This document shows, piece by piece, positions 8,795 through 64,000 of a stretch of 64,000 nt of DNA. The notes under the pieces were generated by a model. It ran no database searches, was not told the DNA's origin, and saw nothing but the letters and a program-made list of their open reading frames with translations. Positions within the stretch are counted from its first letter, which is position 1. Each line of letters starts with the position of its first letter. The position numbers were made by a program, and so were the translations under genes. Source of the DNA: an uncultured Acidobacteriota bacterium (GTDB lineage Bacteria > Acidobacteriota > Thermoanaerobaculia > Multivoradales > UBA5704); contig CAVWOZ010000057.1 in NCBI GenBank assembly GCA_963756595.1, positions 24,707 through 88,706 on the forward strand, given 5' to 3'.

Positions 8795-9217
8795 ATGCTC
8801 GTTCCCATGGACAACACGTATGAATTCGTCGCGCGCCGCGCCTCGGTCCGGCTGGCCGCGAGCCTGGACCCGAACCTCCCCGCGTTCACCGAGCGAGCCC
8901 TTGCCGAGGACGGCGCTCCTCGCGCAACCACCCGCTCCGCTTTCGACATAACCACCGGCATCGCCCTCTCGTCCCTCCTCCTGAACGTCGTCAAGTTCGG
9001 CTGGGACGCCTACCGGAGCCTCCAGAGTGACCGGGAGAAGGAAAAAGAGAAGAAGGAAAAGGCCGAGGCGGACGACCGCGAGCTTCGCCAGTTGCTCATC
9101 CGCCGGATGCGGCTGAATCTGGGTGAGCCCCGCAGCCTCACGGCCGCGCAACGTGACCTGCTTCTCGAGGCCGTGGCCGAGGAGATTTTAGTTTCCGAGG
9201 ACTCCGGGCGGCGATGA
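8795..9217 (+). CDS. Hypothetical protein (charged, coiled-coil-like C-terminus).
   Basis: ORF of 140 aa, ...DREKEKEKKEKAEADDRELRQLLIRRMRLNLGEPRSLTAAQRDLLLEAVAEEIL... No strong RBS. Confidence 0.35.
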   Translation: MLVPMDNTYEFVARRASVRLAASLDPNLPAFTERALAEDGAPRATTRSAFDITTGIALSSLLLNVVKFGWDAYRSLQSDREKEKEKKEKAEADDRELRQLLIRRMRLNLGEPRSLTAAQRDLLLEAVAEEILVSEDSGRR

Positions 9218-9254
9218 GCAGCCGCGGAAGGGCTCCCGCTTGGGTGAACAGCTC

Positions 9255-9420
9255 ACTGCACTCGGCGGGCCGGCGGCTTGTGCGCGTCGCTACAAGACAC
9301 CCTGGAAAGTTCCTCACCGCGCGCCCCGAAGGGGCGAAAATTTGATTAGCCGGGTGCTTTAGCGCCCGGTCTCGGACGTTCCCTATCCCACCCGCCCCGA
9401 GGGGGCGGTGCTCTTCGCGT
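9255..9420. repeat. REP-like hairpin repeat, full ~165 bp copy.
   Basis: cactgcactcggcgggccggcggcttgtgcgcgtcgctacaag...cgccccgaaggggcgaaaatttgattagccgggtgctttagcgcccggtctcggacgttccctatcccacccgccccgagggggcggtgctc. Confidence 0.75.
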
Positions 9421-9504
9421 AGAATTCGCCAATCGCCTCATCGACCCATCTAAGGAGGAACGGTGCGGTCGAGCATTGCAAGGCAGCAGGCGAGGGCCAC
9501 GAGC

Positions 9505-9877
9505 TATGAGCAAGACCGATACTACGCGGGTGACCGTGAAGCCTGGTGAGGAGCTGCCTCGCGGCGAGACCGATTGGGCGCGCGTGAATGCGATGACGGA
9601 TGAGGAGGTGATGGCGGCGGCCGTCTCCGATCCCGATGCCCAGCCGCTTGACCCGGAGGCCTTAGCGAAGATGCGCCGGGTCTCTCCCGTGAAGGTCCTG
9701 CGGCAGCGGCTCGGCATGACCCAAACCGACTTCGCGGAAGCCTTCCGGCTGCCCGTCAGCACCTTGCGGGATTGGGAGCAGCATCGCAGCATTCCCGATG
9801 CACCCGCCCGCGCGTTGCTGCGAGCGATCGACCGTGATCCCGAGACGATGCGACGCCTGCTGTCCGAGGCGGCTTGA
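9505..9877 (+). CDS. HTH DNA-binding protein, antitoxin-like (XRE / COG2944-type HTH with an N-terminal BrnA/DUF4415-like region).
   Basis: ...DEEVMAAAVSDPDAQPLDPEALAKMRRVSPVKVLRQRLGMTQTDFAEAFRLPVSTLRDWEQHRSIPDAPARALLRAIDRDPETM. Flanked by direct REP-like copies. Confidence 0.6.
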
Positions 9878-19803: not shown

Positions 19804-19859
19804 GCCGTCGGATATGCTCCCGCGAGATGCCCATGCCGCTTGGAGAGTCAGCGCCGGCC

Positions 19860-20878
19860 GATGACGCGGGGGGCGCCGGGTCCCCGCCGTCTTCAGGGGC
19901 GACGCGTGGTCCTGCTCGGAGGGCTCGGCTTCCTCGGCCTCAACCTCGTCCCGGAGCTGCTGGACGCCGGGGCCCGGGTGGAGATCGTCAGCCGCTCGCT
20001 CGATCCGCTGGCGCTCTCCTGGCTCGCCCGCCAGGCCGGCGGCTCCCCGGTCGCCGTGCACTTGGGCGACATCCGCGACGCCGAGAAGCTCCCGGTCTGG
20101 CTGCAGGACGCCGACCTGGTGATCAACCTGGCGGGTGAGTCGGGGGCGGTCAAGAGCGCGCGCGACGCGCTGACCGGCCGAGGTCAACGTCGGCGGCCAC
20201 CTCGCCGTGCTGGAGGCGCTGCGGGAGCGCCGCGGCCCGCGCGGGTGGTCTTCATCTCCAGCCGGCTGGTCTACGGCGTGACCGGCTCGGACCCGGTGGA
20301 CGAGGCGCATCCGGTGCGCCCCACCAGCCTGTACGGCCTCCACAAGCTGACCGTGGAGCACTACCACCGTCTCTACTGGGAGCACTTCGGAATCCCCTCT
20401 ACGGTCCTGCGGCTGACCAATCCGTACGGGCCCTTCCAGCTTCCCGACCGGCGGGAGCACGGCATCGTGAACCCTTTCGTCCTCGCCGCTCTGGTGGGGA
20501 GACCATCACCCTCTTCGGCGGCGGGCGGGAGTGCGGGACTACCTGCATGTCTCCGACGTTACGGCGGCGATCCTCGCTGCGCGACGGCGGGAGGCCGTGG
20601 GGAGACCCTCAACGTCGGCTCCGGGGTCTCGGTGAGCCTCCGCGAGGTGGCCCGCCGGATCGTCGAGATCGCCGGCTCCGGCGAGGTCGCGCCGGCCCCT
20701 GGCCCGCGGGGTTCCAGCGGATCGAAACCGGCGATTTCCTCTGCGACATCGGGCGTATCGCGCGCCTCCTCGGCTGGCAGCCGATGACCGACCTCGAGAC
20801 GGGGCTGCGGAGAACGGTCGCGGGTTACCGGGGGCCTCGCCGCGAGGACTGTCCGGTCGTGATCGGCGGCGCGCGATG
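19860..20878 (+). CDS. NAD-dependent epimerase/dehydratase (SDR family), heavily frameshifted.
   Basis: Rossmann motif VVLLGGLGFLG. Catalytic YxxxK in SLYGLHKLTVEHY. The C-terminus ...RIARLLGWQPMTDLETGLRRTVAGYRG. Five or more frame changes. Confidence 0.6.
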
Positions 20879-50400: not shown

Positions 50401-52982
50401 CACGTACTCGAACCCCGCCGGCTGCCCCGGCGTGGCGAACCCTTCCTCCGGAGTGGTCCCGCCGCCGGCCCGCCGCAGCCCGACGTAATACGGATAGGGA
50501 TGCACCTGGAGGCGCTGCATCGCCGCCACCCCGCGCCCCCCCTGCTCCTGGACCCGCGCCGTGATCACCGCCTCGAGCGACGAGGGGACCGGCGCCCCGG
50601 CCGGCATCTCGACCTTGAACTTGGAGCCCCCCTCGTCGTCCAGCTTGCCGGTGGTGGAGAGCACTTCCTTGTCGTCCAGCTTGCGGTCGGCGTTCCGGAA
50701 CGAGAACGTCTCGTACCCCTTGGGGGCGAACGTCGAGTCGGCGAGCCGCACCCGCGTCTCGACCGGCAGCCCCGCCGCCGGCGCCCCGAACAGGTAGCTC
50801 GAATTCACCTGGTACTCGAGCGTCTGCCCCGGCCCGATGTTCGCCTTGGGCGGCACGATCGCCACCGAGATCCGGTCCGGCACGAACTCCTCGACGTGGA
50901 ACCGGTACTGGCCGATCACCTTCTGCGCCACCTCCAGCTCCAGCGTGTGCACGCCGGTCAGCGAATAGGCGGGAAGGGCGAGCTCGAAGGGGGCCAAGCC
51001 CTTGTCGCCGATCATCAAACGCCGCGTCTCGATCTCTCGCCCCTGCGGATCGCGGTGGCGCAGCAGCGCCGGCATCGTGGGGGGGATGTGGAGCGCGCCG
51101 TCGCGCACCACCGTCAATCCCTTCAGGGTCTCCCCCGGCCGGTAGAGATCGCGCTCGCCGTAGAGGAACGCCGTGTACCCCTCCCCCGCGGCCTCGGCGC
51201 CGCCGACGTCGAGCCCGGTCGAGTCGATGGTCATCGTATGGAGGAGGAGGAAGGTGAAGTCGTCCCCCTTCTCGATCGTCACCATGTAGGGGGTCCCCTT
51301 GGCGAGCGCCTTGGGATCGGCTTTTCCGGAAATAGTCCTCCACACCCCCGTCCCGTCCGTCCGCCCGGAGGCCATCACCTGGTTCTGGTCCGAGATCAGG
51401 GTGACCTTGGCGTCTCCCACCGCCGCGAGGTCCTTGAGCGACGACACCCAGACCAGGAATTCCCCCGCCGGCCCGCGCTTGGCCACGGCGCCGAGGTCGG
51501 TCAGCAGCAGCCAGCGCTGCGCCGCCTCCTCCGAATCCGGCTGCCCCACCGAGACGCGGTAGAGGCCGGGCTCCTTGGTATTGATCCACTTGTCGAGGGC
51601 GAGCGGGAAGGTCCGCTTCTTGTTCTTGCCGCCGCCGACGTTCAGCGTCACCTCCTTGAGGCGGTCGCCGAGGGCGTGCTGGAGCTCGCCGACGTAGCCG
51701 CTCTCCTCCTCGAAGAAGCCGCCGTACGTGAAGAGGAAGAAGAGGTTGTTGAGATAGACGCGGTCGATCGTCATCTTGACCTTGGGGACGTTAACCGCCT
51801 CCATGGCCACGGCATGCTTGCCGCCGGACCACAGGAACATCCCCTGGCTCTGGAAGCCGACCGTGGGGTCGAGGTCCGGCAGGTCGACCTCCTGCTCGAA
51901 CGGCTTCTGGAGCACCGCCTCGTCGGTGGCGGGCATCCCCTGGGCGATCTTCAGCGTGTAGCTCTCGCCGGGGGTCATCTCGCCGGTGATCGAGAGCTCC
52001 GTGCGGTCGGCGGCGAAGCGCGGTTTGTTGTTGCCGCCCGGCGCCGGCTCGATCGTCACGTACTTCTCCGCCACGGCGGCCGAGACCGGGGAGGAGAAGG
52101 TGACCTTGAGCGTCGACTCGCGCGGCCCCGGCTGCGTCTCCACCTTGCGCACGGCGAGCTGCGTGCTCGAGCCGACCGCGATCTCCTTCCTGTACTCCTC
52201 GCCGAGCGGCACGTTCCCCTGCGCCGGGGTGAGGGATGGGGCGATCGTCAGCTCGATCTTCCGCTCCTCCTTCCGCTTCTGCACCGGCTCCGTGCGGTAG
52301 CCCACGACCTGGCTGTTGTACTCCGTCTCCAGGGTGACCGCCGTCCCCCCCGGCTTGTCCGGATCGGCCAGCTTGACCAGGGGAGCGAGCGTCTTGGGAT
52401 CGACCGCGTAGTTGAACCGCAGCTCCCCCCGGAACACCACCTTCCCCTTCCCCTCGAGCGCCGGCTCCTCGAGGACGGTCACCTCCTCGACCAGGAACTT
52501 GTCCGTCTTGACCGTGAGCTCCGTCTCGCCGCTGAACACCTGCGTCCCGCTCACCACCTTCGCCGGATCGAGCTCCACCTTGTACTCGCTGGCCACCGGC
52601 AGCCCACCGCTCGGCGTGAACCGTAAAGCATTGGTGTCCTGCCACTTCCAGGACCCGCCCAACGCCGGAAAGATCTTCGCCGGAGCCGGATCGAGCACCT
52701 CCCCCACCTTCCCCTGTCCCAAAGGCTTGTCGAACAAGACATCGAAGTACTGCCGCCCCTGCCGGTCCACCACCACATCAAACACCGAAACCGTCTCCCC
52801 CCCTTCGCCCCCGCCTTGAACTTCGCGAGCGCCTTGGAGAGGGGGGCGCGGAAGGCGTAGGCGGACATGGAGAGGAAGAGGAGGGCGAGGACGCCGATGA
52901 GGACGTCCTTCCAGTGGAGGCGGCGGAGGGCGGCGAGGAGCCGGGACGGGAGGTTTTCCCGCGTTGAGAGGGTAGGGGTCAT
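47473..52982 (-). CDS. yfhM: Bacterial alpha-2-macroglobulin (YfhM-like), ~1835 aa, with a frameshift near 52800.
   Basis: N-terminal signal-anchor MTPTLSTRENLPSRLLAALRRLHWKDVLIGVLALLFLSMSAYA. Thioester motif CLEQ in ...PYGCLEQTTSSAFPLIY... MG domains throughout. Classic pbpC-yfhM pairing. Confidence 0.85.
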
Positions 52983-53542
52983 GGCGGACGCTCCTAAGGG
53001 ATGGGGGTGGATGCTACAGGAAGTGCGTGGTCTGGGAGGGAGAGAGATTCTACGGCAGGCATATTAGGTCAGGCCAAGTCAGGGGGAGATTTTCGCGGAG
53101 GTCCTTGAATTTCTTCGCGTCCGCGAGTTTACCGACCGAGACTTCGCTGCTGGATAGGGGTCCCAACTTGGTGGCCGTTCCCGTATGACAGCCAGAGGCT
53201 CGGGATAGCTACATGGCGACTTCTATCTCCCTCGAGCTAAACGCCAGACCACCCATAGCGTTAGTGTGTGGTTCACAAAAGAACGTTGTATGAATTGGTG
53301 ATGAAGAAGGGAGCAAGCTGCTGTTCTTACCTAGTTGGACAGGCCCTTTCCTCCTTACATCAGGTCGAGGATTCGGCGTCGTCAAATAGACGAATGCGCA
53401 TGTGCGTTACCCAACTCGGGCAAGGTCTTGAATTGGCGGGCATCTCCAAGTAATATGCGAGAATAAACAAGCGCCGCGGAGTCCTAGGGTTTGTTGGGGG
53501 ACAACTTGTCTAACTGGTTCAGGCTTTCGCTATGAGGTAGCC

Positions 53543-54571
53543 GTGACGACACCGAGAGTGCAGCTCCCTGAAGAGGCAGCGATCCTGTTTAGAGAAGCTC
53601 TCCATCCGAGTCCTGCCGAGAATGCGCTGCTTGAGCTTGACAAGCTCTATCAATTCCTTAAGAAGGCCTTTGCTCCGGGCCCGTCAGAAAAGCACAACCC
53701 TGATAGATTTGATGTATTGCTAAATTTGGCTCTCCATAATCCCCCCGACCCGGAAAAAGGGGCTAAGATCCTTGATCTGGGTTCCGGTGACTGCCTTCTT
53801 CTGGAGAAATTACTCAAAAGTCATAAAAAGAAGAAACACTATAAAAAGCCGTTGCGATATGTTGCAATTGATCGGATTTATAGCTCTGAGAATCCTCGAT
53901 GGAAGAGTTTAGAGAGGCAAGCTAAGGTCTGCGACAGGTCATGCTTCGCCTGCCTAAAGCTTATTAATTTTGACATGCATCAACATGAAATTCTAAGTTG
54001 TATTCTTGGAGGCTTGGGGGAGACGTTCAATATAATCTATCTGTCCAACGTCCTTCACGAAATTGACCCTTCGGGTTTGTTCAATATCCTAAATGTCATA
54101 GCGAGGTACCTCGACCAAGATGGAAGAATTGTTGTCTTAGATCCGGCCGTCGAGTGGTGCTTGGCTCCATGGCCAGATAACGTTTCCATCGAGCACGTCA
54201 AGGTTGAATGGGAGGCGGAAGCCGTCTGGTATTCAGCAGAGACTATTACCGAAGTCTTAGAAGCCGCCGGATTCAGTGTCTCCGATCCTACGGAGGCAGA
54301 GCGTACGTCAAATCTGTGGCAAGTCGTTGGGACGGTGCACCCTAGCCGCGAAGCTTCCTGTTCCGAAGCGCATAAGATAATTGAGGCTTTTGTCTCCTCT
54401 CAGCTCGAGACAGAGGCAGAGAAGTGTGTAGACCTTAGGCATCATGTTAAGGCAGGTTTCGTTAATTCGGGGAACATGACTCCTGAGTTGGTCTCAAAAT
54501 TTATGGAATTCTTCTGCGTCTGCGCATCCCAGCATCGAAGGCTTGAAGTTCTCAGAAAGCTATCACAATGA
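53543..54571 (+). CDS. Class I SAM-dependent methyltransferase (low-GC island gene 1).
   Basis: Motif I ILDLGSGDCLL. Motif II/III ...IYLSNVLHEIDP..., ...DGRIVVLDP... GC about 47%. Its stop overlaps the next ATG (ATGA). Confidence 0.7.
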   Translation: MTTPRVQLPEEAAILFREALHPSPAENALLELDKLYQFLKKAFAPGPSEKHNPDRFDVLLNLALHNPPDPEKGAKILDLGSGDCLLLEKLLKSHKKKKHYKKPLRYVAIDRIYSSENPRWKSLERQAKVCDRSCFACLKLINFDMHQHEILSCILGGLGETFNIIYLSNVLHEIDPSGLFNILNVIARYLDQDGRIVVLDPAVEWCLAPWPDNVSIEHVKVEWEAEAVWYSAETITEVLEAAGFSVSDPTEAERTSNLWQVVGTVHPSREASCSEAHKIIEAFVSSQLETEAEKCVDLRHHVKAGFVNSGNMTPELVSKFMEFFCVCASQHRRLEVLRKLSQ

Positions 54572-56115
54572 AAGCCATTAGCTCTATATTCTCAGAATTC
54601 ACGGAATTGTATGCGTCTATCTCTGGGGATGCAAGTTTAAGTTCTCACGATATAAGATCAAAGGTACTTGCCCAAAAAAATCTTTTCACTGCGGCGTCGA
54701 GGATAATACTTCAATCTCGGGGCGACGTGGTCAAGAATTTAACACCTGCCGAGTGTAAGTCCTATGCCGAGCTTAAAGCAGTTCTGCTTTTAAGTGTCGG
54801 AAACGAGAAAGATCAAAAATCTATAGTGGACGTAATGAAAAAAGAACTCTCGCTCATGCTTCGTCTCGATTCCGTTGCTTCTAGAGAGATCGGAGGAGTT
54901 TTGCTCGGTTGCTTGATATTGGGATTGGATGACCTTCCATCGGAAACCGTTGCGCATATTTTAGAGTTTCTGGCTGCTGCTTCAGGACGTCAAGAAGGTG
55001 TCCGCTCCACGATTAGAAGTCCAGAATCGGGAATATCAAGGGAAGTTTCCTTTCGCCTTTCTCAGCTCCTCAATCTAGGTCTGGCCAGCGAGGTTTTTTC
55101 CTTTCTGGATTTTGCCGAAACAGTACCCAAAGTCTCTTTAAGTGAGTTGATGGATGCATCTGTCTTGGCGGTGGGATCGAGAAAGGGAGGAGTCGGAAAA
55201 TCAACCATAATCATGGCTATTCTGCTATGGTATTTAGGAGCTGCCAGTGGAGAGGTTTGTGTTGTCGATTTCGACGTGACCGGGCCGGTATGGCAGTATC
55301 TCCTTTCTCCGGATGGTCGATCTAACGTTGGTGAGCCCATCCCCTACCTCAACACGCTGTTCAACATAGAGCAGTCAGACAAAAGCTTTAATTTCGGGGC
55401 TCCTGGAGCCGCGGAAGTCCTCGCGTGTGTTGCTCCGATTACTTTGCCGCGCGTCGGGAAGAATATTGGCTTACTAACTCTCGCTGATTGGCCGAGAACC
55501 AACAGGTACCTAGTGCAAGCGATTTCAAACAATCGGACTTCATTCATAGAATTTCTTGACGCGCTAATCTCTGGGCTCTCCACTAGGTATAAGCTAATTC
55601 TGATCGACAATTCGCCAGGATTTGACCCTCACTCACTCTTGACGTTAGTTTATGTTGGACAACTGCCGAGAGGCTGCCCGGTTATTATCAGCACTCCGTT
55701 CATCCCAGATATCCGAGGAACTCTATTGGAGCTAGGGGATTTGAGGCTAGTTCCTATGAGGCGGCCTCCGGTGTGGTTTGTAAATAAGGCTAATCAGCGC
55801 GTCAGAGATTTCTTTGGTGCCCCGCATAACCTATTAGAGATAGCCGAGGAAACGCGCTCCTACGCCGAGTTTCTACCTGAAGCCCCGATTCTTGGTCGTG
55901 CCTTAAATCAGTCAAGGGTTAAACTGAGTACGGTTACTCTTCCTTTCGATGCTGACTTGGTTGGCCAAGGGGGGCTAATGGAGTCGGGAGTGTTAGAGGA
56001 TGAGTCAATCGGTAAATTTACATCCTCGGATTTCTTCAGACACTTAAAAGGTCTCATGGGCGCCGAAGGGTCACCCCTAGCGGCGTGGGATACCCTTCTG
56101 AGGGGAGCTCTATGA
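54568..56115 (+). CDS. ParA/MinD-family P-loop ATPase (deviant Walker A) with a ~200-aa N-terminal domain of unknown function (island gene 2).
   Basis: VGSRKGGVGKSTI is the deviant Walker A (KGGxGK[ST]). LILIDNSPGFD is the Walker B-like segment. N-terminal residues 1-190 match no known family. Translationally coupled on both sides. Confidence 0.65.
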   Translation: MKAISSIFSEFTELYASISGDASLSSHDIRSKVLAQKNLFTAASRIILQSRGDVVKNLTPAECKSYAELKAVLLLSVGNEKDQKSIVDVMKKELSLMLRLDSVASREIGGVLLGCLILGLDDLPSETVAHILEFLAAASGRQEGVRSTIRSPESGISREVSFRLSQLLNLGLASEVFSFLDFAETVPKVSLSELMDASVLAVGSRKGGVGKSTIIMAILLWYLGAASGEVCVVDFDVTGPVWQYLLSPDGRSNVGEPIPYLNTLFNIEQSDKSFNFGAPGAAEVLACVAPITLPRVGKNIGLLTLADWPRTNRYLVQAISNNRTSFIEFLDALISGLSTRYKLILIDNSPGFDPHSLLTLVYVGQLPRGCPVIISTPFIPDIRGTLLELGDLRLVPMRRPPVWFVNKANQRVRDFFGAPHNLLEIAEETRSYAEFLPEAPILGRALNQSRVKLSTVTLPFDADLVGQGGLMESGVLEDESIGKFTSSDFFRHLKGLMGAEGSPLAAWDTLLRGAL

Positions 56116-57479
56116 ACGTAGACTTTGGGTTGAGCCTATCTTTCTTTCTAATATATGCGGCCATTGCGGTGATTATCGGCATCTTCGCTTCCCGAAAGGA
56201 GAGCGAAGAGGACTTTATGATCGCCGATCGTAAGGTGGGCGGCATTCAGATGGTCGCGACCATGACAGCTGGAGTGTTTGATGGTGCTGCGCTATCGATC
56301 TATATTGCCTATGTTTACCAGTTTGGTTTTTCGGCGCTGTGGTTTTTTGTAGGAATTTCCCTGGGCTTTTTACTGTTCCGCCAGCTTGCGTCCAAGATAA
56401 AGGTAAAAGCCGATTCAATGGGCGTTTATTCCATGCCTGAATACTTTTATAGGTTATTCGGTTCCAGGAACGGCGTTATGTTCTCGATTTTCCTCTGCCT
56501 CCAGTTTTTTGTGTACCTGGTGGTTAATTTTATAATAAGCGGCAAGGTGCTGGCCCAAATATTCCCCTTCCTTGGCTATGGTGGCTCAGTTGTAGTCGGA
56601 GGCTGTATTATTTTGAGCTATCTTCTTATGGCAGGGTTTAAGGCAGTTGTGCGGACTGATTTCTACCAATTTCTGATTATGATATTGATGACAGTTTGTG
56701 TTGGGTATTATTTGAGCAGGAAATCGGAAATTAGAGTAACCGATTTAGATCTCTCAGGGATGGGGGTCGGCAATACTCTCGGATTCCTCGTACTGGCGGG
56801 TTTGGGTGTGCTTGTGGCTCCAGACCTTTGGCAGCGGGTATTCGCGGCCAAAGATCAAAAGAATCTCAGAAGGGGGTTTGGTTATGGAGCGTTGATTCTG
56901 CCTCTTCTGGCCATAATCGTTACCACCGTAGGGCTGGCCACCAAGCGGGCCAATTTGAACATTCAGCCCGAAGATGCTTTGGTTGCGGGATTTTCACGAC
57001 TACTCCCATATGGAATTAAAGAATTTGGCCTCGTTCTTCTCTACGCGGTCGCACTATCGTCTTCAGACACTGTGACTTTCGTTGTCTCTAGTATAATAAC
57101 GAGAGACTTGAAGAACTACACCAGTCGCTTCACCGACGAATCAATGAAGAAAATGACGCGGTTTTCTATGATTGGCTTTGTGATCTTGGCTCTGGCAATA
57201 GCGGTCGTGTACCAGAAAATTCTCGCACTCGCATTTTCTCTGTTGAGCTTAAATCTGGCATTGTTCCCCGTAGTTTTCGGGTCCTTCTTTTGGCGCTTGA
57301 ACAGGTCTGCCGTCTTCTGGAGCTTGGTTGTCACTCTCCTCTTTGTGATTACACTGAGCGTTGCTAGCTCGTTGACTCCAGAAACCGCTACGCTTTCGCT
57401 GCCCGTAGCCCTTATTTCACTCCTAATATTTCAGTTTCTTCCTCGTCTATATGAGCGTGTGCGCGCGCGCCTTTCTTAG
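56112..57479 (+). CDS. Sodium:solute symporter (SSS) family transporter (island gene 3).
   Basis: AGGGGAG RBS. ...DFMIADRKVGGIQMVATMTAGVFDGAALS... is the SSS signature. About 13 TM helices. Confidence 0.75.
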   Translation: MNVDFGLSLSFFLIYAAIAVIIGIFASRKESEEDFMIADRKVGGIQMVATMTAGVFDGAALSIYIAYVYQFGFSALWFFVGISLGFLLFRQLASKIKVKADSMGVYSMPEYFYRLFGSRNGVMFSIFLCLQFFVYLVVNFIISGKVLAQIFPFLGYGGSVVVGGCIILSYLLMAGFKAVVRTDFYQFLIMILMTVCVGYYLSRKSEIRVTDLDLSGMGVGNTLGFLVLAGLGVLVAPDLWQRVFAAKDQKNLRRGFGYGALILPLLAIIVTTVGLATKRANLNIQPEDALVAGFSRLLPYGIKEFGLVLLYAVALSSSDTVTFVVSSIITRDLKNYTSRFTDESMKKMTRFSMIGFVILALAIAVVYQKILALAFSLLSLNLALFPVVFGSFFWRLNRSAVFWSLVVTLLFVITLSVASSLTPETATLSLPVALISLLIFQFLPRLYERVRARLS

Positions 57480-57533
57480 GTTGGCATAAGGTTGGCATAT
57501 CGCGCTTGTACGTCTTGACAAGGTTGTCGTGGG

Positions 57534-58877
57534 TTATCGTGCGTATTCAAGAACCTCCAGCCCATTGAGGGAGAGAAGTTCGGCGCGCACAGCCTTCAAG
57601 GTTTCCAGATCAACATTTGTATGGTTCTGAAGGAATAAATTTCTCATATCATCTGAGTCATAGAAGAAAGGGTTGGAGATCCAAGGCTTCTTCTGATCGA
57701 TGTCCTGAGTGAATGGAGCCCATAAGGGGCTCCCTGGCAAGGGGAGAACGATGTTGCAGTAGCAGCGAACTCCGGGAAATGATCGAAGTTCAGCGAACAA
57801 AGAACGTGTTTCTTCGATACTCTCCAGATCCTCTCCGATCAATCCGATTACAAAGGAAGCGTAAATGCCGATGCCTCGTGAGCAAAGGCTTTCCACTGCG
57901 GACAGTATTCGCTCGCGGGTGTAGAATTTACCGTTCATTTTGAGTATTCTAGGTGAGCCGGATTCAATGCCGAGTAAGGCTTGGTCAATATTGACAGCCG
58001 CCATAAGTTCGGCGGAGCTATCGTTTATATCTCGGACATCGGCGAACACATGCATCCTGAAGTCCAGATCGGAAAGGTGGTCAGTGAAGTAGTGGAGGTA
58101 ATCATTAGTCCATGCGCGCTGCACCCAGGTATCAGACATATCGAGGATGTAATCAACATCATAGAGTTCGATGAGGGTGCGAATTTCATGGCCAAAGAGA
58201 TTGATGTCTCGCTCCCTCCAGCCCGTCTTGTCAATGCGAGCGCAAAAACTGCATGCTCGTGGACAACCGCGCCGTGAGTAAAGATTGGTGGGCCGCTCGC
58301 AAATGATGTTTTTCATCGTATTGGACAGGGCAAATTGAGAAATGTAATCCTCCGGAATAAGTCCGCCGATAGTCCTGTCTATAAAGGGCACGACAGATAG
58401 GTCTTCCTTAATAGATTCCGTGTAGCGAACCTGGCCTTCATTTTTAAATGCGAGATTAGGAACTGCCCGAAGATCTAGTCGCTGCGGATTCGCTGACTTA
58501 GTCAATGCTCTGATAGCTGGTTCCCCATCGCCGACGACAACGGCGTCTATGTCCGGATGCGACGCCAGTACCGCTGCATTAGCCGTTGCCGCTTGGCCAC
58601 CTGATATTACGAGTGCTCCAGACCGTCGTGCCTGGGCAGCTATTCTCCCGGCAGAGGAGGCCGAAAGGATGGTATAGGCTAGGCCTACAATGTCGGCGCT
58701 TCCATCGAGCCGCTCTAAAATGGTAGAGAGGGATAGCAGTGTTCCGTCGAGAATTTCTACCTCATATAGATCTCTATTGGCTGCCGCAGCTACAGAGAGT
58801 AGATCGACTGGCATGTACCATTTGTCGACTAGATACTCTGGTGAATCTAGGGGGGCCTTTATCAGTTGGAGTTTCAT
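57534..58877 (-). CDS. B12-binding-domain radical SAM protein (class B rSAM; methyltransferase-like), island gene 4, convergent.
   Basis: N-terminal cobalamin-binding-like domain (...ADIVGLAYTILSAS...VISGGQAATA...). Radical SAM core CPRACSFC (CxxxCxxC), ...ILDMSDTW..., ...ALLGIESGSPRILKMN... Confidence 0.8.
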   Translation of the reverse strand: MKLQLIKAPLDSPEYLVDKWYMPVDLLSVAAAANRDLYEVEILDGTLLSLSTILERLDGSADIVGLAYTILSASSAGRIAAQARRSGALVISGGQAATANAAVLASHPDIDAVVVGDGEPAIRALTKSANPQRLDLRAVPNLAFKNEGQVRYTESIKEDLSVVPFIDRTIGGLIPEDYISQFALSNTMKNIICERPTNLYSRRGCPRACSFCARIDKTGWRERDINLFGHEIRTLIELYDVDYILDMSDTWVQRAWTNDYLHYFTDHLSDLDFRMHVFADVRDINDSSAELMAAVNIDQALLGIESGSPRILKMNGKFYTRERILSAVESLCSRGIGIYASFVIGLIGEDLESIEETRSLFAELRSFPGVRCYCNIVLPLPGSPLWAPFTQDIDQKKPWISNPFFYDSDDMRNLFLQNHTNVDLETLKAVRAELLSLNGLEVLEYAR

Positions 58878-59085
58878 GTGGCGTCCCTTTCAGGGTAGGG
58901 AGGTTAGAGTACGCCCTAGAATACCTCAACTGCCGCGTCCTGGCTCGTTCACTCTCATTCCGGGGAGGTCGCCGGGTGCTCTCCTGCTGTCGGCCTCCGC
59001 CAGAAATCCAGTAAGCGTACGGTGAACCCCATGTCGGCCCGGTCGGGTCCCACGCCGTCCGGAGGGCGGGGGCGGTCAGGCGGCC

Positions 59086-59225
59086 TGTGGGGCGACCTGG
59101 GAGAGCTTCCAGGCCTGCGGGGTGAGCTCAGCGAGGGCGGCCGGGGAGTGGGTGGGGAGCCGCTCCAGGACGTCGCGCAGGTAGGCGTAGGGGTCGATCT
59201 TCAGCCTGGCGCCCGGAAGAGGCGC
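59086..59225 (-). pseudogene. Remnant of an IS66-family transposase (C-terminal ~45 codons only).
   Basis: The reverse strand reads ...ARLKIDPYAYLRDVLERLPTHSPAALAELTPQAWKLSQVAPQAA*, matching the conserved IS66 TnpC C-terminus (DPxAYLxDVLERL...ELLP..W). A tandem 15-bp duplication lies immediately upstream. Confidence 0.55.
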
Positions 59226-59489
59226 CCGGGAAGAGGTGCCACCCGAAAAGTTGAAGGTAGCCGCGCTTCGGCCGGCGACCGCGGCTGAAAATGGGGGGCG
59301 AGGTGATCGTCGCGGGCTTCTTGGGCGATGGTGGGGTCGCTGGGGCGCGGTTTAGAGGCGATTTGCCGGGTCGGCGACCTCGAATGCGCGGTTTCCGGGC
59401 TCGTCTGGACACACGTATCCCAGGGCTCTCTGTCCCGAGAGCTGGGATGTGGGGAGTCTTCAAGCCGCGACGGCGATCCGCCGCCTATC

Positions 59490-60550
59490 CGCCCACGAAG
59501 GGCAGCGGCGGCGGGAAGCAGCCCATGGGGAAGGGCGGGTCGCGGTGCCCGGCGCGGAGCTTCTCGGCGGCGCTCCGGTAGGCGGCGACGAAGAGGAAGT
59601 AGGCGTTGCGCAGCTCGCGGCGGACGGCGCGGCTCGCGGCGTGGACGGCCGGCGCGGGCGAGCGCTTGGTCTTGAGGGGACGACTTTCGGGGCTCTGGGC
59701 CAGGATGGCCGCGGGACCGAGGGCCGGCACTCCGGTCCGCTCCCGGCGGTCGGCGGCTTCCGCTTCGATCTCCGACACCATGGCGACGGCGAGCTCCTGC
59801 CGCTTCTCCGGCGGGAGGTGCTTCCAGCAGGGGAGGGGAGCGAGCTCCAGGGTTTCGCGGGTCGCATACTGGTAGGTGCCGAAGGACTCGCCGCGGCGGC
59901 GGGCGAGGTACTCCTGGGTGCGGTCGAACCACCAACCCTCGAGAGTCTTGCCGGTGGTCAGAGCCTCGACGCAGTGGACTCCCGGCCAGTCCCGAAGGCG
60001 TTCGACCAGATTCTCCTTGCAGCCGTGGCTGAGGACGTACCGGAGTCGCGCGATCTGCGCCTCGGGCTCGTCGCTGATCTAGATCGCCTGGTACCGGCGG
60101 CCGAAGATCTTCTCCCGCCAACCGGTCAGCCGGCCGATCTCGCGGGCGACCTTGGAGAGGAAGTAATTCGCCGGAGAGCTCCAGGACCCCCCGGGGCACG
60201 GAGGGACCCTCGTCTCCGGGGTGGCGGACGACGATTCCATGGACCGGCGCGGGAAGGGGCACGACGCTGACGACCGGCGTCGTGCGGAGATATCCGACCC
60301 CCCAGGGGCGCCAGCTCATCGGCGGCAAGCTCTTTTCCTGACCCGCGACGAACCAGCGCAACTCCAAGGGCAGACGGAGCAGCCCATCGCCCGGCCCGCC
60401 CGGTCCCATCGCGGCGTCGAGGACCGGCGCGTTGAGCGGGGGCGCCGCCTCGAGCTCGGTTGGATTTCCCAGCGCTCCGGCCTTGCCGACCGGGAAGACC
60501 TCGAGAGTGTCCGTCTGGAGAAGGTAGACCTGACCCTCAGCGTCGGCCTG
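59490..60550 (-). CDS. Hypothetical protein (possibly mobile-element-associated), frameshifted near 60100.
   Basis: ...QVYLLQTDTLEVFPVGKAGALGNPTELEAAPPLNAPVLDAAMGPGG...MSWRPWGVGYLRTTPVVSVVPLPAPVHGIVVRHPGDEGPSVPRGVLELSGE then .NYFLSKVAREIGRLTGWREKIFGRRYQAI.ISDEPEAQIARLRYVLSHGCKENLVERLRDWPGVHCVEALTTGKTLEGWWFDRTQEYLARRRGESFGTYQYATRETLELAPLPCWKHLPPEKRQELAVAMVSEIEAEAADRRERTGVPALGPAAILAQSPESRPLKTKRSPAPAVHAASRAVRRELRNAYFLFVAAYRSAAEKLRAGHRDPPFPMG... Confidence 0.35.
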
Positions 60551-61036
60551 GACCTTCTGCGGTTGGAGCCGAGTAGCCCTCTCTCGCCCGGCTCGCGGTG
60601 CCGCTTTTCGACCTGCGCCCGCTGGATCGCGGTCTCTCCCCTCCGCTCCCGCGTCTCCTCCCCCTGAAATTTTGCTTCCGGGAATCAGGGGGAGCATGCC
60701 GCCCCTCGTTTTTCGGTCCCTCCCCTCGTTCCCGGCTCGCTCCCTCTGATTCCCTGTCTTCGGGAATGAGGGGGAGCTGACGAAAAACGAGAGGGAGGGT
60801 CCGGGGAGTCAGGGGGAGCGGCTGAAAGATAGAGGGGAGGTCATCGGGAACGAGAGGGGGGAGGCGAAAAACTGGGTACTGGGTCTTTTTGAAATTTGGG
60901 CGGGTGGGGCCGGCCCCCATCTGCGCCAGGGTAAGCCCGGCTCCGTTGGGCCACCTGCCCGGTGAGCGCGGACTATACGTTTGTATAGTTTGGGTGTAAG
61001 ATCGGGAGGTGCGGTACGTTGTAGGGCAAGCCCCCC

Positions 61037-61226
61037 GGTGAACCGCGAGAGAGCCTTTGCGCTGTACTGCGAGGCCCTCCGGGAAGGCGGCTTGCTGGTC
61101 GTAGTGTTCGCGTCCCTAGACGCTTGGTTCGGCAAAGCGACCCTCGGCGTCATTGTTTGGATCTTATCCGGGATCGCGCTGCTGTACGCGGGGATCCGGT
61201 TGGACCCGGAGGTGCGAAAGAAATGA
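61037..61226 (+). CDS. Small membrane protein (2 TM), ~63 aa.
   Basis: ...EGGLLVVVFASLDAWFGKATLGVIVWILSGIALLYAGIRLDPEVRKK. Its stop TGA overlaps the ATG of the next small ORF. Confidence 0.3.
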
Positions 61227-61321
61227 ATCTCTTCTACGTGTTCCTGCCCTTGGCCCTGCTGGCGGCGCTCGCCTTCTTCGACGGCTACCTGCCCTATATC
61301 CGGAGCCAGCGGAAGAAGTAG
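61223..61321 (+). CDS. 32-aa single-TM peptide.
   Basis: MNLFYVFLPLALLAALAFFDGYLPYIRSQRKK. GGAGG lies upstream. Translationally coupled to the preceding small ORF. Confidence 0.3.
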   Translation: MNLFYVFLPLALLAALAFFDGYLPYIRSQRKK

Positions 61322-61385
61322 GGCGGATACTGAAGCGTCCCTTGCCGGCCCCGAACGCGGGGCCGGCCCCGTCTACGGCTCCCCG

Positions 61386-62255
61386 CTACGCCTCCCGCTT
61401 CTTGTAAGGTCCCCGCTTCTTCGGCGCCTCGACCGGCAGCAGCGCGACGATCTCCGCGATCGACCAGAGGTGCGGGGTGACCCCGGCCGCCATCGCGGGC
61501 GAGCAGCGGATGGTGGAGTGAATCCGCGCAAAATTGTAGTGCATAAAGAATATAGCAAGAGCCGCGCAGTGGTTCTCCAGCTTTTTGCTGTGGGCGTTCG
61601 TCAGGCGGGTGTAGCGCCGGAGCCCCATCCGCATGGACAGGTTCGCCCGCTCGACGTAGGACGTCGACACCCGCGCCGACTCAGGGTTGCCTGAGATAGC
61701 ATGCTTCTGCGCTCCGATGCACTGCGCCGGGGAGTAGCGCGTCTCTCCGCCCGGGGCAGGCGCGTAGATCTTCTGAAGCATGGCGTAGTCAACGTCTCCG
61801 CCGAAAGCGTCCAGGACGGCGCCCACGTAGACTTTCAGGCCGTCGCTCGTGATCTGAACCCGGTTCGCGAGCCGGCCCGCGAGATCCTGCATGAACTCGG
61901 TGGCGGTGCCGGCGTCGCGGGGACCGACCATGTAGGACGGAATCAGCTTCGTGTCGGCATCGATCGCCGTAAACGTCCAGACGTCGCCAAAGCCGAAGGT
62001 TCCCTTCTTCTCTTCGGGAACGTTCTTGGCCTTGGCGTAGCAGAACGCCCAAATTTCATCAACTTCTAAGGTTTTGCACGGCAGGTCGTGAAACGCTTGG
62101 TCCATGTAGGCCGCGCACACCGGCCCGAGATCCGCGATGAGCTTGGTCACGGCACCCTTGGAGGCGCCCGTCATCCGGCAGGTCGAGCGGATGCCGACCC
62201 CTTCGACCAGGGCGGCGATGATGGTGGCTTGACGCTTCGGTTCCATGCGGTTCAT
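61386..62255 (-). mobile_element. IS1595-family DDE transposase gene. The IS boundaries are not resolved.
   Basis: ...EVDEIWAFCYAK...WTFTAIDADTKLIPSY...ITSDGLKVY... (DDE). The C-terminal ...HSTIRCSPAMAAGVTPHLWSIAEIVALL is typical of IS1595/ISSod11-like transposases. Confidence 0.7.
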
Positions 62256-62426
62256 GATGACCTATTATGCGTGAGCAAGGAGGAAATGTCCAGCGTTATA
62301 AGGCGGAATTTTTGAGATTCATAGATTTCCCCGTCCGCCCTCGCTAAAATGTGCCGGGTGTGGAATCTTACCCTCCAGCTCTCCGCGGGGCGTGATAGGC
62401 GGAGCTTCCGCCGGGAAGGCGCAACT

Positions 62427-62984
62427 ATGGACGATCCGAGTGAACGCATCAGATCATCTGTTCGGAAGTTTTACGAAAAGGATCAAGCCGCTGCCGATGA
62501 GAAACGAGCATCCGACGTGCTCCGCGTATCGGGGCAGCAAGCGCGGGATAACTTTGCGAGTGACGTAGAGAACGTGATTCTGCCGACCCTTCACCGCATG
62601 AAAGACGATATCGACTCAGAATCGCCTGAGAGCGTTACCTGGGGGGTAGCGAGGGACCGAAGGGTAGGCGCTCTTCGAGCCGAGATTTCTTCACCACAAG
62701 GCAAAGACCGAGTAACTTTTTTGCTCATCGGCGGGCCCCGGCACGCCGGCTTGGTTTTCACCCTGAATGCCGCGGAAGGATGCGTTCGGATTACTTGCGA
62801 CTCATTTGAGTGGGAGACTACCAAGAAGAACGTCCCTTACCGCTACCGAAGGCAAGTGGAGGTTAGCGACGGAACCGGAAGGGAAGCTAGGACCATTGTC
62901 AATATGCCCTTGCACCAAATCAATATAAGCAGAGTCGAGGAAGTCGTCGCGGCGTTCATTGATGAAGTGCTTGGGGCGGCCTAG
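62427..62984 (+). CDS. Hypothetical protein (185 aa), lower GC (~52%).
   Basis: GGAAGG RBS, then ATG 62427. MDDPSERIRSSVRKFYEKDQAAADEKRASDVLRVSGQQARDNFASDVENVILPTLHRMKDDIDSESPESVTWGVARDRRVGALRAEISSPQGKDRVTFLLIGG... Confidence 0.45.
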   Translation: MDDPSERIRSSVRKFYEKDQAAADEKRASDVLRVSGQQARDNFASDVENVILPTLHRMKDDIDSESPESVTWGVARDRRVGALRAEISSPQGKDRVTFLLIGGPRHAGLVFTLNAAEGCVRITCDSFEWETTKKNVPYRYRRQVEVSDGTGREARTIVNMPLHQINISRVEEVVAAFIDEVLGAA

Positions 62985-63045
62985 GGGGCCGAAGAGACGG
63001 AATGGTCAGCCTTGATTGCTTCCCCTCCCGTCGTATTTTCCCTCG

Positions 63046-63279
63046 CTACGCGGATTCCTTCTCCCATCGCTTCCGGGCGGCCTTCTGAGCGCTCGCCGAC
63101 CGCTCAGCGGCGGTCAGCTTCTCCGCCCGGGCGTTGCCTCCCTTGAGGCCGCCCTTGCGGCCCGCCGCCGCTTTGGGGGATAGCGTTTCGACGTGCGCGG
63201 CGGGTGGCGCGTCGAGGTGGGCGGCTTGCTGCGCGATGCGGAAGGCGACTTGGGTGAAATCGGGCTTTGGTTTCTTCAT
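63046..63279 (-). CDS. Small basic protein (KGG-repeat / histone-like tail), 77 aa.
   Basis: GGAGA RBS. MKKPKPDFTQVAFRIAQQAAHLDAPPAAHVETLSPKAAAGRKGGLKGGNARAEKLTAAERSASAQKAARKRWEK. Confidence 0.4.
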   Translation of the reverse strand: MKKPKPDFTQVAFRIAQQAAHLDAPPAAHVETLSPKAAAGRKGGLKGGNARAEKLTAAERSASAQKAARKRWEKESA

Positions 63280-63335
63280 GGCATCTCCAGTATAAGGCAC
63301 GGGGGCGGCCCGTCCAGGCGCCGCCCCCGTGGTGG

Positions 63336-63800
63336 TCAGACGGACTCGCGAGTGTGACGGGTGATGACCTGCCCAGCGTTCGGCAGTTCATCCCGCAGGA
63401 TGGCAGCGACCAGCTCCGCCGCTAGGGAGCGGCATTGCCGGGAAGATCGAAGCGTCGCGATGACCTTGGCGCCGGGGACGTGTACCAGCGTGAAGAAGCA
63501 ACTCCGATCGTCTCGGCGGTCGTCGTCGCCTCTAAAGTAGGCAAGGGGGTAGGAAACCATGCCGTTGACGTTCAACCGCTCCCCGTTCGCCATGGTGACG
63601 TCAAAGCGACCCCGCCGCCAGCCTAACGGGATAGGCTTCCCCGCCCGCTGTACCGCCTCTATGTGGCGATCGGCAGCAACGGCTAACCAAGTGCCTACCG
63701 CCCGATGACCTTCCCCGTGGGCGGCCCGCTGCCAGCGTGCGGCCTGTCCATCGCTGGCCCAAACGGAGAAGCTGACCCGCTTGACCGCCGTCACTGCCAA
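63336..63800 (-). CDS. Ribbon-helix-helix (CopG-like) N-terminal domain fused to a ~100-aa unknown C-terminal domain.
   Basis: VKRVSFSVWASDGQAARWQRAAHGEGHRAVGTWLAVAADRHIEAVQRAG shows the RHH pattern. The C-terminal part is ...FDVTMANGERLNVNGMVSYPLAYFRGDDDRRDDRSCFFTLVHVPGAKVIATL... Confidence 0.4.
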   Translation of the reverse strand: MAVTAVKRVSFSVWASDGQAARWQRAAHGEGHRAVGTWLAVAADRHIEAVQRAGKPIPLGWRRGRFDVTMANGERLNVNGMVSYPLAYFRGDDDRRDDRSCFFTLVHVPGAKVIATLRSSRQCRSLAAELVAAILRDELPNAGQVITRHTRESV

Positions 63801-63985
63801 TACTCCGAGTACTTCTCCTGGAACTCCTGCGCGGCGTCGATCGCCCGCTGTAGATCTCCGGCGGGGTCTCTAGGCTCGCCGTAGGGTACGGAGCGGAAGG
63901 GCGCGGGGAGGTATTGAACCGCGTTCCTTGCCGCCTGGAAGAGGGCGCCAAGCTTCTGCTTCTCCTCGATCCGGAGGGCGATCAT
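63791..63985 (-). CDS. Small protein (64 aa), first gene of a three-gene minus-strand cluster at the window edge.
   Basis: MIALRIEEKQKLGALFQAARNAVQYLPAPFRSVPYGEPRDPAGDLQRAIDAAQEFQEKYSEYWQ. Overlaps the downstream gene by 10 bp. Confidence 0.3.
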   Translation of the reverse strand: MIALRIEEKQKLGALFQAARNAVQYLPAPFRSVPYGEPRDPAGDLQRAIDAAQEFQEKYSEYWQ

Positions 63986-64000
63986 GTCCCGCCTCTTGGC

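Follow-up and report, generated by a model that had tools for sequence, protein, structure and literature searches.

A rare gene combination of a methyltransferase, a MinD/ParA-type ATPase and a sodium:solute symporter recurs in metagenomic loci and occupies a low-GC island of an uncultured Acidobacteriota bacterium

INTRODUCTION

ATPases of the MinD, FlhG, FleN, ParA, McdA and BcsQ families share a deviant Walker A motif with a signature lysine (KGGVGKS), a DxD switch I and a DxxPG switch II. A deviant Walker-A ATPase can also adjoin, and be translationally coupled with, a secondary transporter, as in ArsA-ArsB, which is a precedent for the docking of an ATPase on a carrier. Here we describe a segment of low guanine-plus-cytosine (GC) content in a stretch of 64,000 nucleotides (the window) from an uncultured Acidobacteriota bacterium (contig CAVWOZ010000057.1 of assembly GCA_963756595.1). 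This island carries such an ATPase (ParAL) in one operon with a class I S-adenosylmethionine (SAM)-dependent methyltransferase (MT23) and a transporter of the sodium:solute symporter family (SSF), followed by a class B, that is B12-binding, radical SAM enzyme (rSAM). An earlier note on this DNA, made from the sequence alone, had drawn attention to the mixture.

ParAL has the three motifs of the MinD-like families and, as in ArsA-ArsB, is coupled with the adjoining transporter gene. Unlike MinD, FlhG, FleN, ParA, McdA and BcsQ, to which it is only 11–18% identical, it remains under every curated cutoff and has an N-terminal domain of ~195 amino acids (aa) that is predicted to be HEAT-like. Its fixed partners are the methyltransferase and the SSF transporter; a gene for a cognate ParA/MinD partner (ParB/centromere, MinC/E, FlhF, McdB or BcsR/E) was not found in any locus.

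The defence systems BREX, DISARM and MADS and the PADLOC candidate PDC-M28 also bring a methyltransferase and an ATPase together on mobile islands. The matches of the present module to mad2 (E about 1e-4) and PDC-M28B (E about 2e-5) cover the generic SAM-binding fold or the P-loop only. In contrast to BREX, DISARM and MADS, MT23 has no DNA-methyltransferase motif, PglZ, helicase, nuclease and other defining genes are absent, and the transporter and the radical SAM enzyme are foreign to those systems.

Known class B methylases (MgmA/MJ0865, PhpK, HpnJ/HpnR, GenK-type and PoyC-type) have, like rSAM, an N-terminal B12-binding domain and a CxxxCxxC core, and are weakly similar to it; unlike them, rSAM reaches no family cutoff (68 bits versus 360) and forms its own small clade. 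The transporter has close counterparts, ~60–66% identical over the full length, among the housekeeping SSF proteins of candidate phyla radiation (CPR) bacteria and DPANN archaea. These are encoded among central-carbon and nucleotide genes (PfkB-family kinase, pyruvate phosphate dikinase (PPDK), phosphoglucomutase) without ParAL, MT23 or rSAM, and the island-type copies cluster outside the main CPR/DPANN cluster.

RESULTS

The gene combination recurs in a small set of metagenomic loci

We searched 5.8 billion proteins for ParAL, and six more loci were obtained from JGI metagenomes. The ATPase family proved extremely rare: the protein search recovered only 13 relatives, one of them a truncated, 100%-identical copy of the window protein and the others 33–47% identical. 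The 185,579 species-representative genomes yielded one P-loop-only match and nothing else. ParAL was not found in IMG/VR, and neither ParAL nor the island DNA nor B249, a protein of some other copies (see below), was found in PLSDB.

From the gene calls, and from BLASTP comparison of all the loci with the window proteins, we observed the following. The module is present in ~10 independent metagenomic loci besides the window (ParAL identity, 21–47%). The common order is MT23, ParAL and SSF, after which there are two alternatives. In variant A, a gene for a class B radical SAM enzyme completes the module (the window, L003/L004, L006, L008 and L014/L015; in L014 this gene is ahead of SSF). Variant B ends with B315, B249 and BMT25 (L005, L007, L013, and also L001, where the two halves of the module are 7 kb apart). 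A stop-start overlap joins MT23 and ParAL in eight of the ten loci having MT23. In L001 and L010, a gene for an XRE-type helix-turn-helix (HTH) protein of ~310 aa precedes SSF. The more distant ParA-like loci, L016–L018, contained no other module component. The mixture of genes, described as unusual in the earlier note, is indeed so, and it is not a one-off; the finding is real and, because the combination recurs, more interesting than a single odd operon.

The identity matrices showed that the groupings of ParAL and MT23 agree (L001/L007/L010 versus L003/L005/L008), and that those of SSF and rSAM differ from them. L005, a variant-B locus, groups with the variant-A loci L003 and L008 by its ParAL and MT23. 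In L003, the radical SAM enzyme is the closest one to that of the window (58% identity), and the SSF is only 28% identical, a non-orthologous replacement. Judged from these matrices, ParAL and MT23 co-evolve. The parts have been exchanged, yet the same kinds of parts always occur together, which is strong evidence for a functional unit. The sequence groupings likewise provide strong evidence that the module comprises two sub-modules, namely MT23 with ParAL, and SSF with the tailoring enzymes.

We found no described counterpart of this composition in the libraries and literature searched. In PADLOC-DB v2, the window proteins gave domain fragments only (mad2, E 9e-5; PDC-M28B, E 2e-5 over 52 aa; PDC-M51A, over 20 aa), and the variant-B proteins gave none. 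Curated NCBIfam and Pfam models returned superfamily-level calls only, and a literature search found no paper that describes this gene combination. The mixture was found in none of the characterized pathways and defence systems searched.

The island is a foreign segment with a reproducible right border

By exact measurement the island is 6028 bp long with 49.1% GC (Table 1), as against 68.6% on its left (1–52982) and 65.1% on its right (59011–64000). In the composition profile, GC falls from ~0.70 to 0.43–0.51 between roughly 53,000 and 58,900, and the lowest 6-kb window on the left of the island has 62.5% or higher. The drop had been put at ~47%, a value which is a local minimum; the mean is 49%. 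Third-codon-position GC (GC3) is 0.47–0.54 in the four island genes and 0.96 in the adjoining alpha-2-macroglobulin gene. As had been observed, the drop begins at the start of this gene (yfhM; ATG at 52982, island from 52983), and it ends at an IS66 remnant. The end had been placed at 58930; it lies near 59010, since the IS66 terminal repeat is at 59011.

Deviant composition and codon usage together with a mobile-element association are marks of a genomic island, and the segment has them. It is foreign and horizontally acquired, as originally proposed, with 49% versus 69% GC, a GC3 of ~0.5 versus 0.96, and an IS66 end abutting. An integrase or transposase of its own, flanking direct repeats and a tRNA target were not found at the island; no tRNA is present in the window, no repeat pair flanks the island, and there is a single IS66 end only.

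Two other assemblies cover this region. Contig_8766 of the ENA assembly ERZ25039594 aligns to 52960–64000 of the window with 99.77% identity and ten indels, and in that assembly one of these indels cuts the ATPase short. The contig stops at 52960, 23 nt inside the macroglobulin open reading frame (ORF). In the Logan short-read assembly ERR11718634, the island is a separate contig of 6287 bp (~53112–59398). Three assemblies contain the right junction; two contain the left one, where the overlap is 23 nt only.

A chimeric or contaminant join, by which the four genes would have come from another organism, had been named at the outset as what could undo the island. The ENA contig does end practically at the left border, the short reads assemble the island as its own 6.3-kb contig, and the segment has neither direct repeats nor a second IS66 end around it. 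However, the right junction (island, IS66 remnant and high-GC DNA to 64000 and beyond) is reproduced at 99.8% identity in the ENA contig, and ~390 bp beyond it are also in the Logan contig; on the left, the ENA contig does extend into the macroglobulin ORF. Elsewhere, too, the module differs in GC from the host DNA around it. A strain-variable insertion would be expected to break the contigs at both borders, as would a coverage change at the GC step. Because of the agreement of three assemblies on the right and two on the left, we consider a chimeric contig highly improbable.

MT23 and ParAL form the first part of the module

The four family assignments made previously were all upheld by Pfam above cutoff, and all four ORFs are intact. 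The proposed translational coupling of MT23, ParAL and SSF is borne out by the ATGA overlaps that can be read at 54568–54571 and 56112–56115.

MT23 matched Methyltransf_23 with 34.7 bits (cutoff 27) and has motif I of class I SAM enzymes followed by the acidic post-I residue (ILDLGSGDC; Y-V-A-I-D). In an alignment of nine sequences, L-D-L-G..G, Y.A.D, N.LHE and WEA.A are invariant in the family, and the C-terminus is a conserved helical extension of ~75 aa with the motif F..CASQ.RR.E. A word search for homologues gave two only, and a sequence search of the PDB, with the single sequence and with a profile, gave no useful relative. None of the DNA-methyltransferase motifs (D/N/S)PP(Y/F/W), PCQ or ENV was found in MT23 and its eight aligned homologues; the site equivalent to the catalytic motif of those enzymes reads L-S-N-x-L-H-E. 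By these motifs, MT23 classes as a small-molecule or protein-type class I methyltransferase.

In ParAL, the Pfam ParA P-loop match (30.9 bits; cutoff 27.1) is restricted to aa 198–251. Residues 198–515 make up a deviant Walker-A ATPase (SRKGGVGKS, DFD, IDNSPG), in which S-R-K206-G-G-V-G-K211-S, D234/D236 and D347-N-S-P-G are invariant in 13 homologues. ParAL therefore possesses the Walker-A motif and the switch I/II aspartates of the ParA/MinD class, and the structure model predicts the three-dimensional fold of this class as well. The N-terminal ~190 aa had been described as a domain of unknown function, and they do match no sequence family; aa 1–195 are modelled as a HEAT-like alpha-solenoid. 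A conserved amphipathic helix, S-x-(L/F)-F-(R/K)-x-F, is located near the C-terminus (aa 485–498), with a hydrophobic moment of 0.45–0.88 versus a protein mean of 0.25–0.29 and a net charge of about 0 to +2. It recalls the membrane-targeting helices of MinD and FlhG, a likeness that is only suggestive. All the NCBIfam equivalogs scored far below cutoff (for example minD_bact, 18.5 bits versus 212.9), as did NF047398, the 'KGGVGR-motif variant AAA ATPase' (34.4 bits versus 90), the motif here being KGGVGK.

ParAL might alternatively be a metal-cluster carrier or maturation factor of the Mrp/NBP35/ApbC type serving rSAM, and the module an ordinary cofactor-dependent metabolic operon. The matches that would point to it span the P-loop only (aa 198–251). 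In the homologue alignment, ParAL has no CxxC motif and one invariant cysteine only (C231); it is as well conserved in variant B, where an iron-sulphur (Fe-S) enzyme is lacking, as in variant A; and it co-evolves with MT23, not with rSAM. Since variant B lacks an Fe-S enzyme, ParAL lacks CxxC and the co-evolution is with MT23, a carrier role is contradicted. Variant B largely refutes it, and we regard it as most improbable.

SSF belongs to a family common to CPR bacteria and DPANN archaea

SSF is a member of TC 2.A.21 (Pfam SSF, 63.5 bits, cutoff 22.8; TIGR00813 superfamily, E 2.4e-20), and it scored far below the cutoffs of the PutP and PanF equivalogs; an upstream GTG at 56085 is also open. 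A PDB sequence search gave nothing useful. It is the best-conserved component (52–73% identity among module copies), and is ~60–66% identical over the full length to a very large CPR/DPANN family (>420 matches at E<1e-20), mostly in Parcubacteria, Nomurabacteria and Moranbacteria, and in Woesearchaeota and Nanoarchaeia. When the best 120 matches were clustered, ~100 of them fell in one tight group and the module copies in small separate groups. This family is kept at an identity of at least 60% across two domains of life, in CPR bacteria and in DPANN archaea.

We looked at the gene neighbourhoods of these relatives. In Parcubacteria, the transporter gene lies 5 bp 3' of a ribokinase-family kinase gene, in an apparent operon amid glycolysis and pentose-phosphate genes; the nearest PDB relative of the kinase is the nucleoside kinase MJ0406, with ribokinases and fructokinases next. 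The Woesearchaeota gene has purD on one side and the phosphoglucomutase gene on the other. Other relatives follow a PPDK-like gene or have an uninformative context. Because of the Parcubacteria and Woesearchaeota neighbours, a sugar- or nucleoside-like polar compound is a reasonable candidate for the substrate of SSF. At ~60–66% identity, the island and CPR/DPANN transporters probably share their substrate class.

The endings of the two variants

rSAM is a class B enzyme, with both PF02310 (36 bits; cutoff 32.1) and PF04055 (55.6 bits; cutoff 29.5) present and the cluster motif CxxxCxxC reading CPRACSFC. None of the curated class B subfamilies accommodates it; 19 NCBIfam families matched, all below cutoff. 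The best curated match is TIGR04014, the glutamine methylase of methyl-coenzyme M reductase (MCR; E 4.7e-19, 68.5 bits versus a cutoff of 360), followed by MJ_1487, PhpK, BchE and HpnJ. The nearest PDB entry is 9CCB (E 1.4e-9), which is MgmA (PMC11796369). Among 1.84 billion representatives, we found ~7 clusters with at least 40% identity to rSAM, beyond which the score drops sharply, and the next-nearest relatives likewise have no family assignment. This clade accompanies the module in all five variant-A loci seen. rSAM is, by these comparisons, a member of a small module-specific clade, and probably a methylase.

The earlier note had described rSAM as converging on the operon and had taken it, with the SAM methyltransferase, to point to C- or N-methylation of a small molecule or peptide. 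The convergence holds in the window, and in every other variant-A locus the gene is co-directional. B12-dependent radical chemistry is not what all copies have in common, since a radical SAM enzyme is missing from variant B.

In variant B, B315 and B249 are both helical and paralogous to each other (hhalign probability 76%, E 2.4e-5). B315, B249 and B354 match no Pfam or NCBIfam family even at E 10, and a PDB sequence search gave nothing for B315 and noise only for B249. The pair is located at 4117–5810 in L007, 13128–14735 in L005, 11011–12688 in L001 and 12768–14466 in L013. Two acidic motifs are invariant in these proteins, Y-x-x-D-x-x-x-E and then E-(I/L)-E-D-D-L-x-S-x-x-E-D-x-R-R-G-x-F-N. 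By eye they look like the Asp-rich metal-binding motifs of class I isoprenoid synthases and of squalene/phytoene synthases (SQS-PSY), a likeness that no tool result supports. The nearest solved relatives of BMT25 are the nucleoside diphosphate-aminosugar N,N-dimethyltransferases CalS10, DesVI and TylM1, and ToxA (E 6e-8 to 1e-5). On such relationships and motifs, BMT25 and MT23 both appear to be methyltransferases of the small-molecule type.

The closest relatives of rSAM raise the alternative of a cluster for a ribosomally synthesized and post-translationally modified peptide (RiPP) or for protein modification. In such a cluster, a ribosomal peptide or a protein would be methylated by rSAM and the methyltransferase, and its export would fall to the transporter. 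The curated family and the solved structure closest to rSAM, TIGR04014 and MgmA, are indeed protein/peptide C-methyltransferases, and the families ApyD and rSAM_ocin_1 are among the others. But these matches are far below the family cutoffs (68 bits versus 360), and phosphonate, hopanoid and lipid methylases score alike. The suggested precursor scan of 52990–53540 and 57480–57533 was made as an all-against-all comparison of the ORFs of 20–130 aa from 11 loci, and no small ORF conserved between loci was found in the upstream region, in the spacer or elsewhere outside the large genes. A leader peptidase, an RRE and an ABC exporter are lacking, SSF proteins import small solutes, and variant B has no rSAM. 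We therefore consider a RiPP cluster very unlikely. Rfam detected no riboswitch or other RNA in or near the island, nor in the 10 related loci save one tRNA.

Most copies with informative flanks lie among mobile or conflict genes

We examined the flanks of the other copies. Upstream of L005 are Tn7-like TnsABC-TniQ genes, and downstream is a type I/IIG restriction-modification system. L014 has a tyrosine integrase upstream, and a PLD-SNF2 helicase, an HNH nuclease, a methyltransferase-HIT fusion and a PAPS reductase downstream. L003, a copy from Myxococcota, shares its island with phage-like genes and a bpMoxR-vWA conflict system. L006 is accompanied by a MORC-like HATPase_c_3 protein and a metallophosphoesterase, and L013 by a prokaryotic E2-E1 fusion and HTH genes. 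The neighbours of L001 are ordinary (aspartyl-tRNA synthetase, AspRS, and a decarboxylase). The habitat of the module is thus mobile or conflict islands. Host GC of the loci ranges from 32 to 69%, and the module lies 3–9 points under its flanks elsewhere and 20 points under them in the window; because of this larger gap, we take the window copy to be the least ameliorated one.

Two further observations concern single loci. The island of L003 is bounded, in the region 19849–20541, by an excisionase-type HTH_17 gene and a tRNA (20469–20541, minus strand). In L011, genes for a CDP-alcohol phosphatidyltransferase and a polyprenyl synthase (3351–5134, minus strand) are convergent with the module genes; they are either chance host genes or may hint at a lipid/isoprenoid link.

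These surroundings are the main argument for an undescribed system of defence against phages or other mobile genetic elements (MGEs), in which MT23 and ParAL would be the sensing or switch unit, and the transporter with rSAM (or with the variant-B trio) the effector, which could make an antiviral modified metabolite or, upon infection, run down ion gradients or the pools of metabolites. Of the six loci whose flanks are informative, five (L005, L014, L003, L006 and L013) are among defence or MGE genes. Extreme rarity with a patchy spread across hosts of such different GC, the swapping of parts as in many defence systems, and the weak P-loop-only matches to the PADLOC candidate PDC-M28B point in the same direction. 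Several facts speak against it. No component reaches any PADLOC v2 model; none of the usual effectors (nuclease, protease, TIR, SIR2 and the like) is present; MT23 has no DNA-methyltransferase motifs; and no defence system is known to use a secondary transporter that is highly conserved and apparently functional. The flanks sampled are few, metabolic cargo also travels on mobile islands, L001 has its ordinary neighbours, and the module was not found in IMG/VR. We therefore judge this interpretation to be rather unlikely. Its biochemistry overlaps with that of the explanation preferred below, from which it differs by committing to immunity.

Neighbouring features within the window

The features of the island are listed in Table 1. 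Its left neighbour is, by Pfam, a bacterial alpha-2-macroglobulin of 1770 aa. The signal-anchor N-terminus of this protein (ATG at 52982, minus strand, MTPTLSTRENLPSRLLAALRRLHWKDVLIGVLALLFLSMSAYA...) is read in a different frame from the 1770-aa body. The frame switches within 52785–52982, at a C7 run (52797–52803; G7 on the coding strand), through a homopolymer sequencing error or else a real, possibly phase-variable, frameshift beside the insertion.

Table 1. Positions of the island, its genes and the adjoining IS66 remnant in the window
Feature	Position	Strand	Description
Low-GC foreign segment (island)	52983–59010		49.1% GC in a background of 65–69% GC
Left arm, presumed promoter region of the operon	52983–53542		560 bp, non-coding; no conserved ORF or Rfam match
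MT23, class I SAM-dependent methyltransferase	53543–54571	+	342 aa; Methyltransf_23
ParAL, MinD/ParA-type ATPase with N-terminal helical domain	54568–56115	+	515 aa
SSF, sodium:solute symporter family transporter	56112–57479	+	455 aa; Pfam SSF
Spacer between convergent genes	57455–57533		GC-rich hairpin, then T-run (terminator-like)
rSAM, class B (B12-binding) radical SAM enzyme	57534–58877	-	447 aa; B12-binding and Radical_SAM
IS66 remnant	59011–59204	-	Terminal inverted repeat GTAAGCGTACGG at 59011 and last 42 transposase codons (59076–59204)

On the right of the island are the remnants of IS66 and IS1-family elements and a series of small ORFs without family. The canonical IS66 terminal inverted repeat, GTAAGCGTACGG, occurs only once in the window, and the transposase end was recognized as the IS66 C-terminal element (PF13817, E 3e-10, ~59076–59204, minus strand). 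An intact IS1-family transposase of 289 aa (61386–62255, minus strand; NCBIfam NF033558, E 9e-15, below cutoff; Pfam DDE_Tnp_IS1, E 2e-5) lies 2.4 kb beyond the IS66 end. In ENA contig_8766 this gene is split into three ORFs by indels, which indicates that the window is the better-polished assembly.

Between these elements, GC3 periodicity and translation mark a real gene at 59485–60200 (minus strand); an in-frame stop, together with a change of frame further upstream, makes it a probable pseudogene. A Y1/REP-type transposase identity for it was not supported, as neither Pfam nor PDB gave a match. The 498-aa ORF at 59201–60697 (minus strand) was rejected as a gene, being an Arg/Pro-rich out-of-frame product of high-GC DNA. 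Short G-rich repeats, both direct and inverted, are clustered at 60680–60870, in the non-coding DNA that separates the degraded gene from the IS1 element, with three copies of GGGAATCAGGGGGAGC and 24-nt inverted arms at 60702–60725 and 60771–60794. They could be an insertion sequence end or a REP-like element.

DISCUSSION

Our tentative reading of the segment, which we put somewhat short of an even chance, is that it arrived recently as one copy of a rare module that moves horizontally and has two co-selected parts. The first part is MT23, a putative small-molecule-type SAM methyltransferase, co-translated with ParAL and its predicted HEAT-like scaffold. The second part would be the symporter with a second methylating activity, which is rSAM here, and an aminosugar-N-methyltransferase-like enzyme with two paralogous helical proteins in variant B. 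What the earlier note had proposed is preserved as regards the families, the coupling, the foreign origin and the IS66 remnant. A conserved RiPP precursor was not found in the two regions that it had named, the convergence of rSAM is peculiar to this copy, and rSAM is not the core.

Held with the same reserve is the idea of a mobile cassette that couples transport to methylation and is organized at the membrane by the ATPase. From the genes and their order we infer a complex, a direction of transport, a substrate class and a role, as follows. The symporter would carry a polar, sugar- or nucleoside-like compound through the membrane. ParAL in its ATP-bound form may dock on the membrane or on the transporter via the amphipathic C-terminal helix, and its helical-repeat domain may hold the methyltransferase or methyltransferases there. 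The cargo would then be methylated twice, by an ordinary SAM-dependent enzyme and by radical C-methylation, on entry or ahead of exit. Such an accessory trait of mobile or defence islands could serve conflict or defence, for example through a modified metabolite, or niche adaptation through uptake and modification. For an accessory uptake-and-modification or production pathway, we would put the chance at close to even; a dedicated defence function is rather doubtful, and what chance is left falls to other roles.

Several observations weigh against this two-part scheme. In L013, a winged-helix protein of 271 aa (9023–9838; HTH_27/MarR-like, with weak Csa3-type PADLOC matches) stands in place of MT23, so a DNA-binding protein may also serve as partner of the ATPase. 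L011 has MT23 and ParAL without SSF within 2 kb, and the SSF side may exist alone, because some module-type SSF contigs, which are long, gave no ParAL match. The complex and its membrane docking would follow from gene order, an overlap and a moderately amphipathic helix. A class B radical SAM enzyme need not be a methylase, and the structure model of MT23, made from a two-sequence alignment, has a pLDDT of 44. The equivalence of variants A and B is an assumption, because B315 and B249 have no recognizable fold. The suggested substrate comes from the neighbours of ~62%-identical homologues in other phyla, and these neighbourhoods are not uniform.

A more specific possibility, which we consider unlikely, is a chemistry-based immune or conflict system. 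A MinD-like switch with a HEAT scaffold would control a transporter-linked pair of methylating enzymes, yielding a C-/N-/O-methylated antimetabolite from a sugar or nucleoside that is either imported or cellular. Equally doubtful are its corollaries, that the product might be, for instance, a C-methylated nucleoside chain terminator that blocks the replication of phages or competitors, and that rSAM and the methyltransferase with two helical proteins would be alternative chemistries to the same end.

Each of the proteins belongs to a known superfamily, and the likeliest reading of the module is an accessory transport-and-modification operon on a mobile island, with a SIMIBI ATPase as partner. 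If the two parts do form a functional unit, it would be a self-contained, transferable pathway that joins a secondary transporter to radical and conventional methylation. It would give a MinD/ParA-type ATPase an unprecedented role, outside DNA segregation, division, and the flagellar or cellulose machineries, and so widen the known uses of this ATPase class; it would also define a new clade of cobalamin-dependent radical SAM enzymes. Since it is found repeatedly in Tn7-like, integrase-borne and defence-rich islands, the module is a credible candidate for a trait that acts in defence or competition through chemistry. Its transporter is one of the most conserved membrane proteins common to CPR bacteria and DPANN archaea, and the module offers a handle for finding the substrate.

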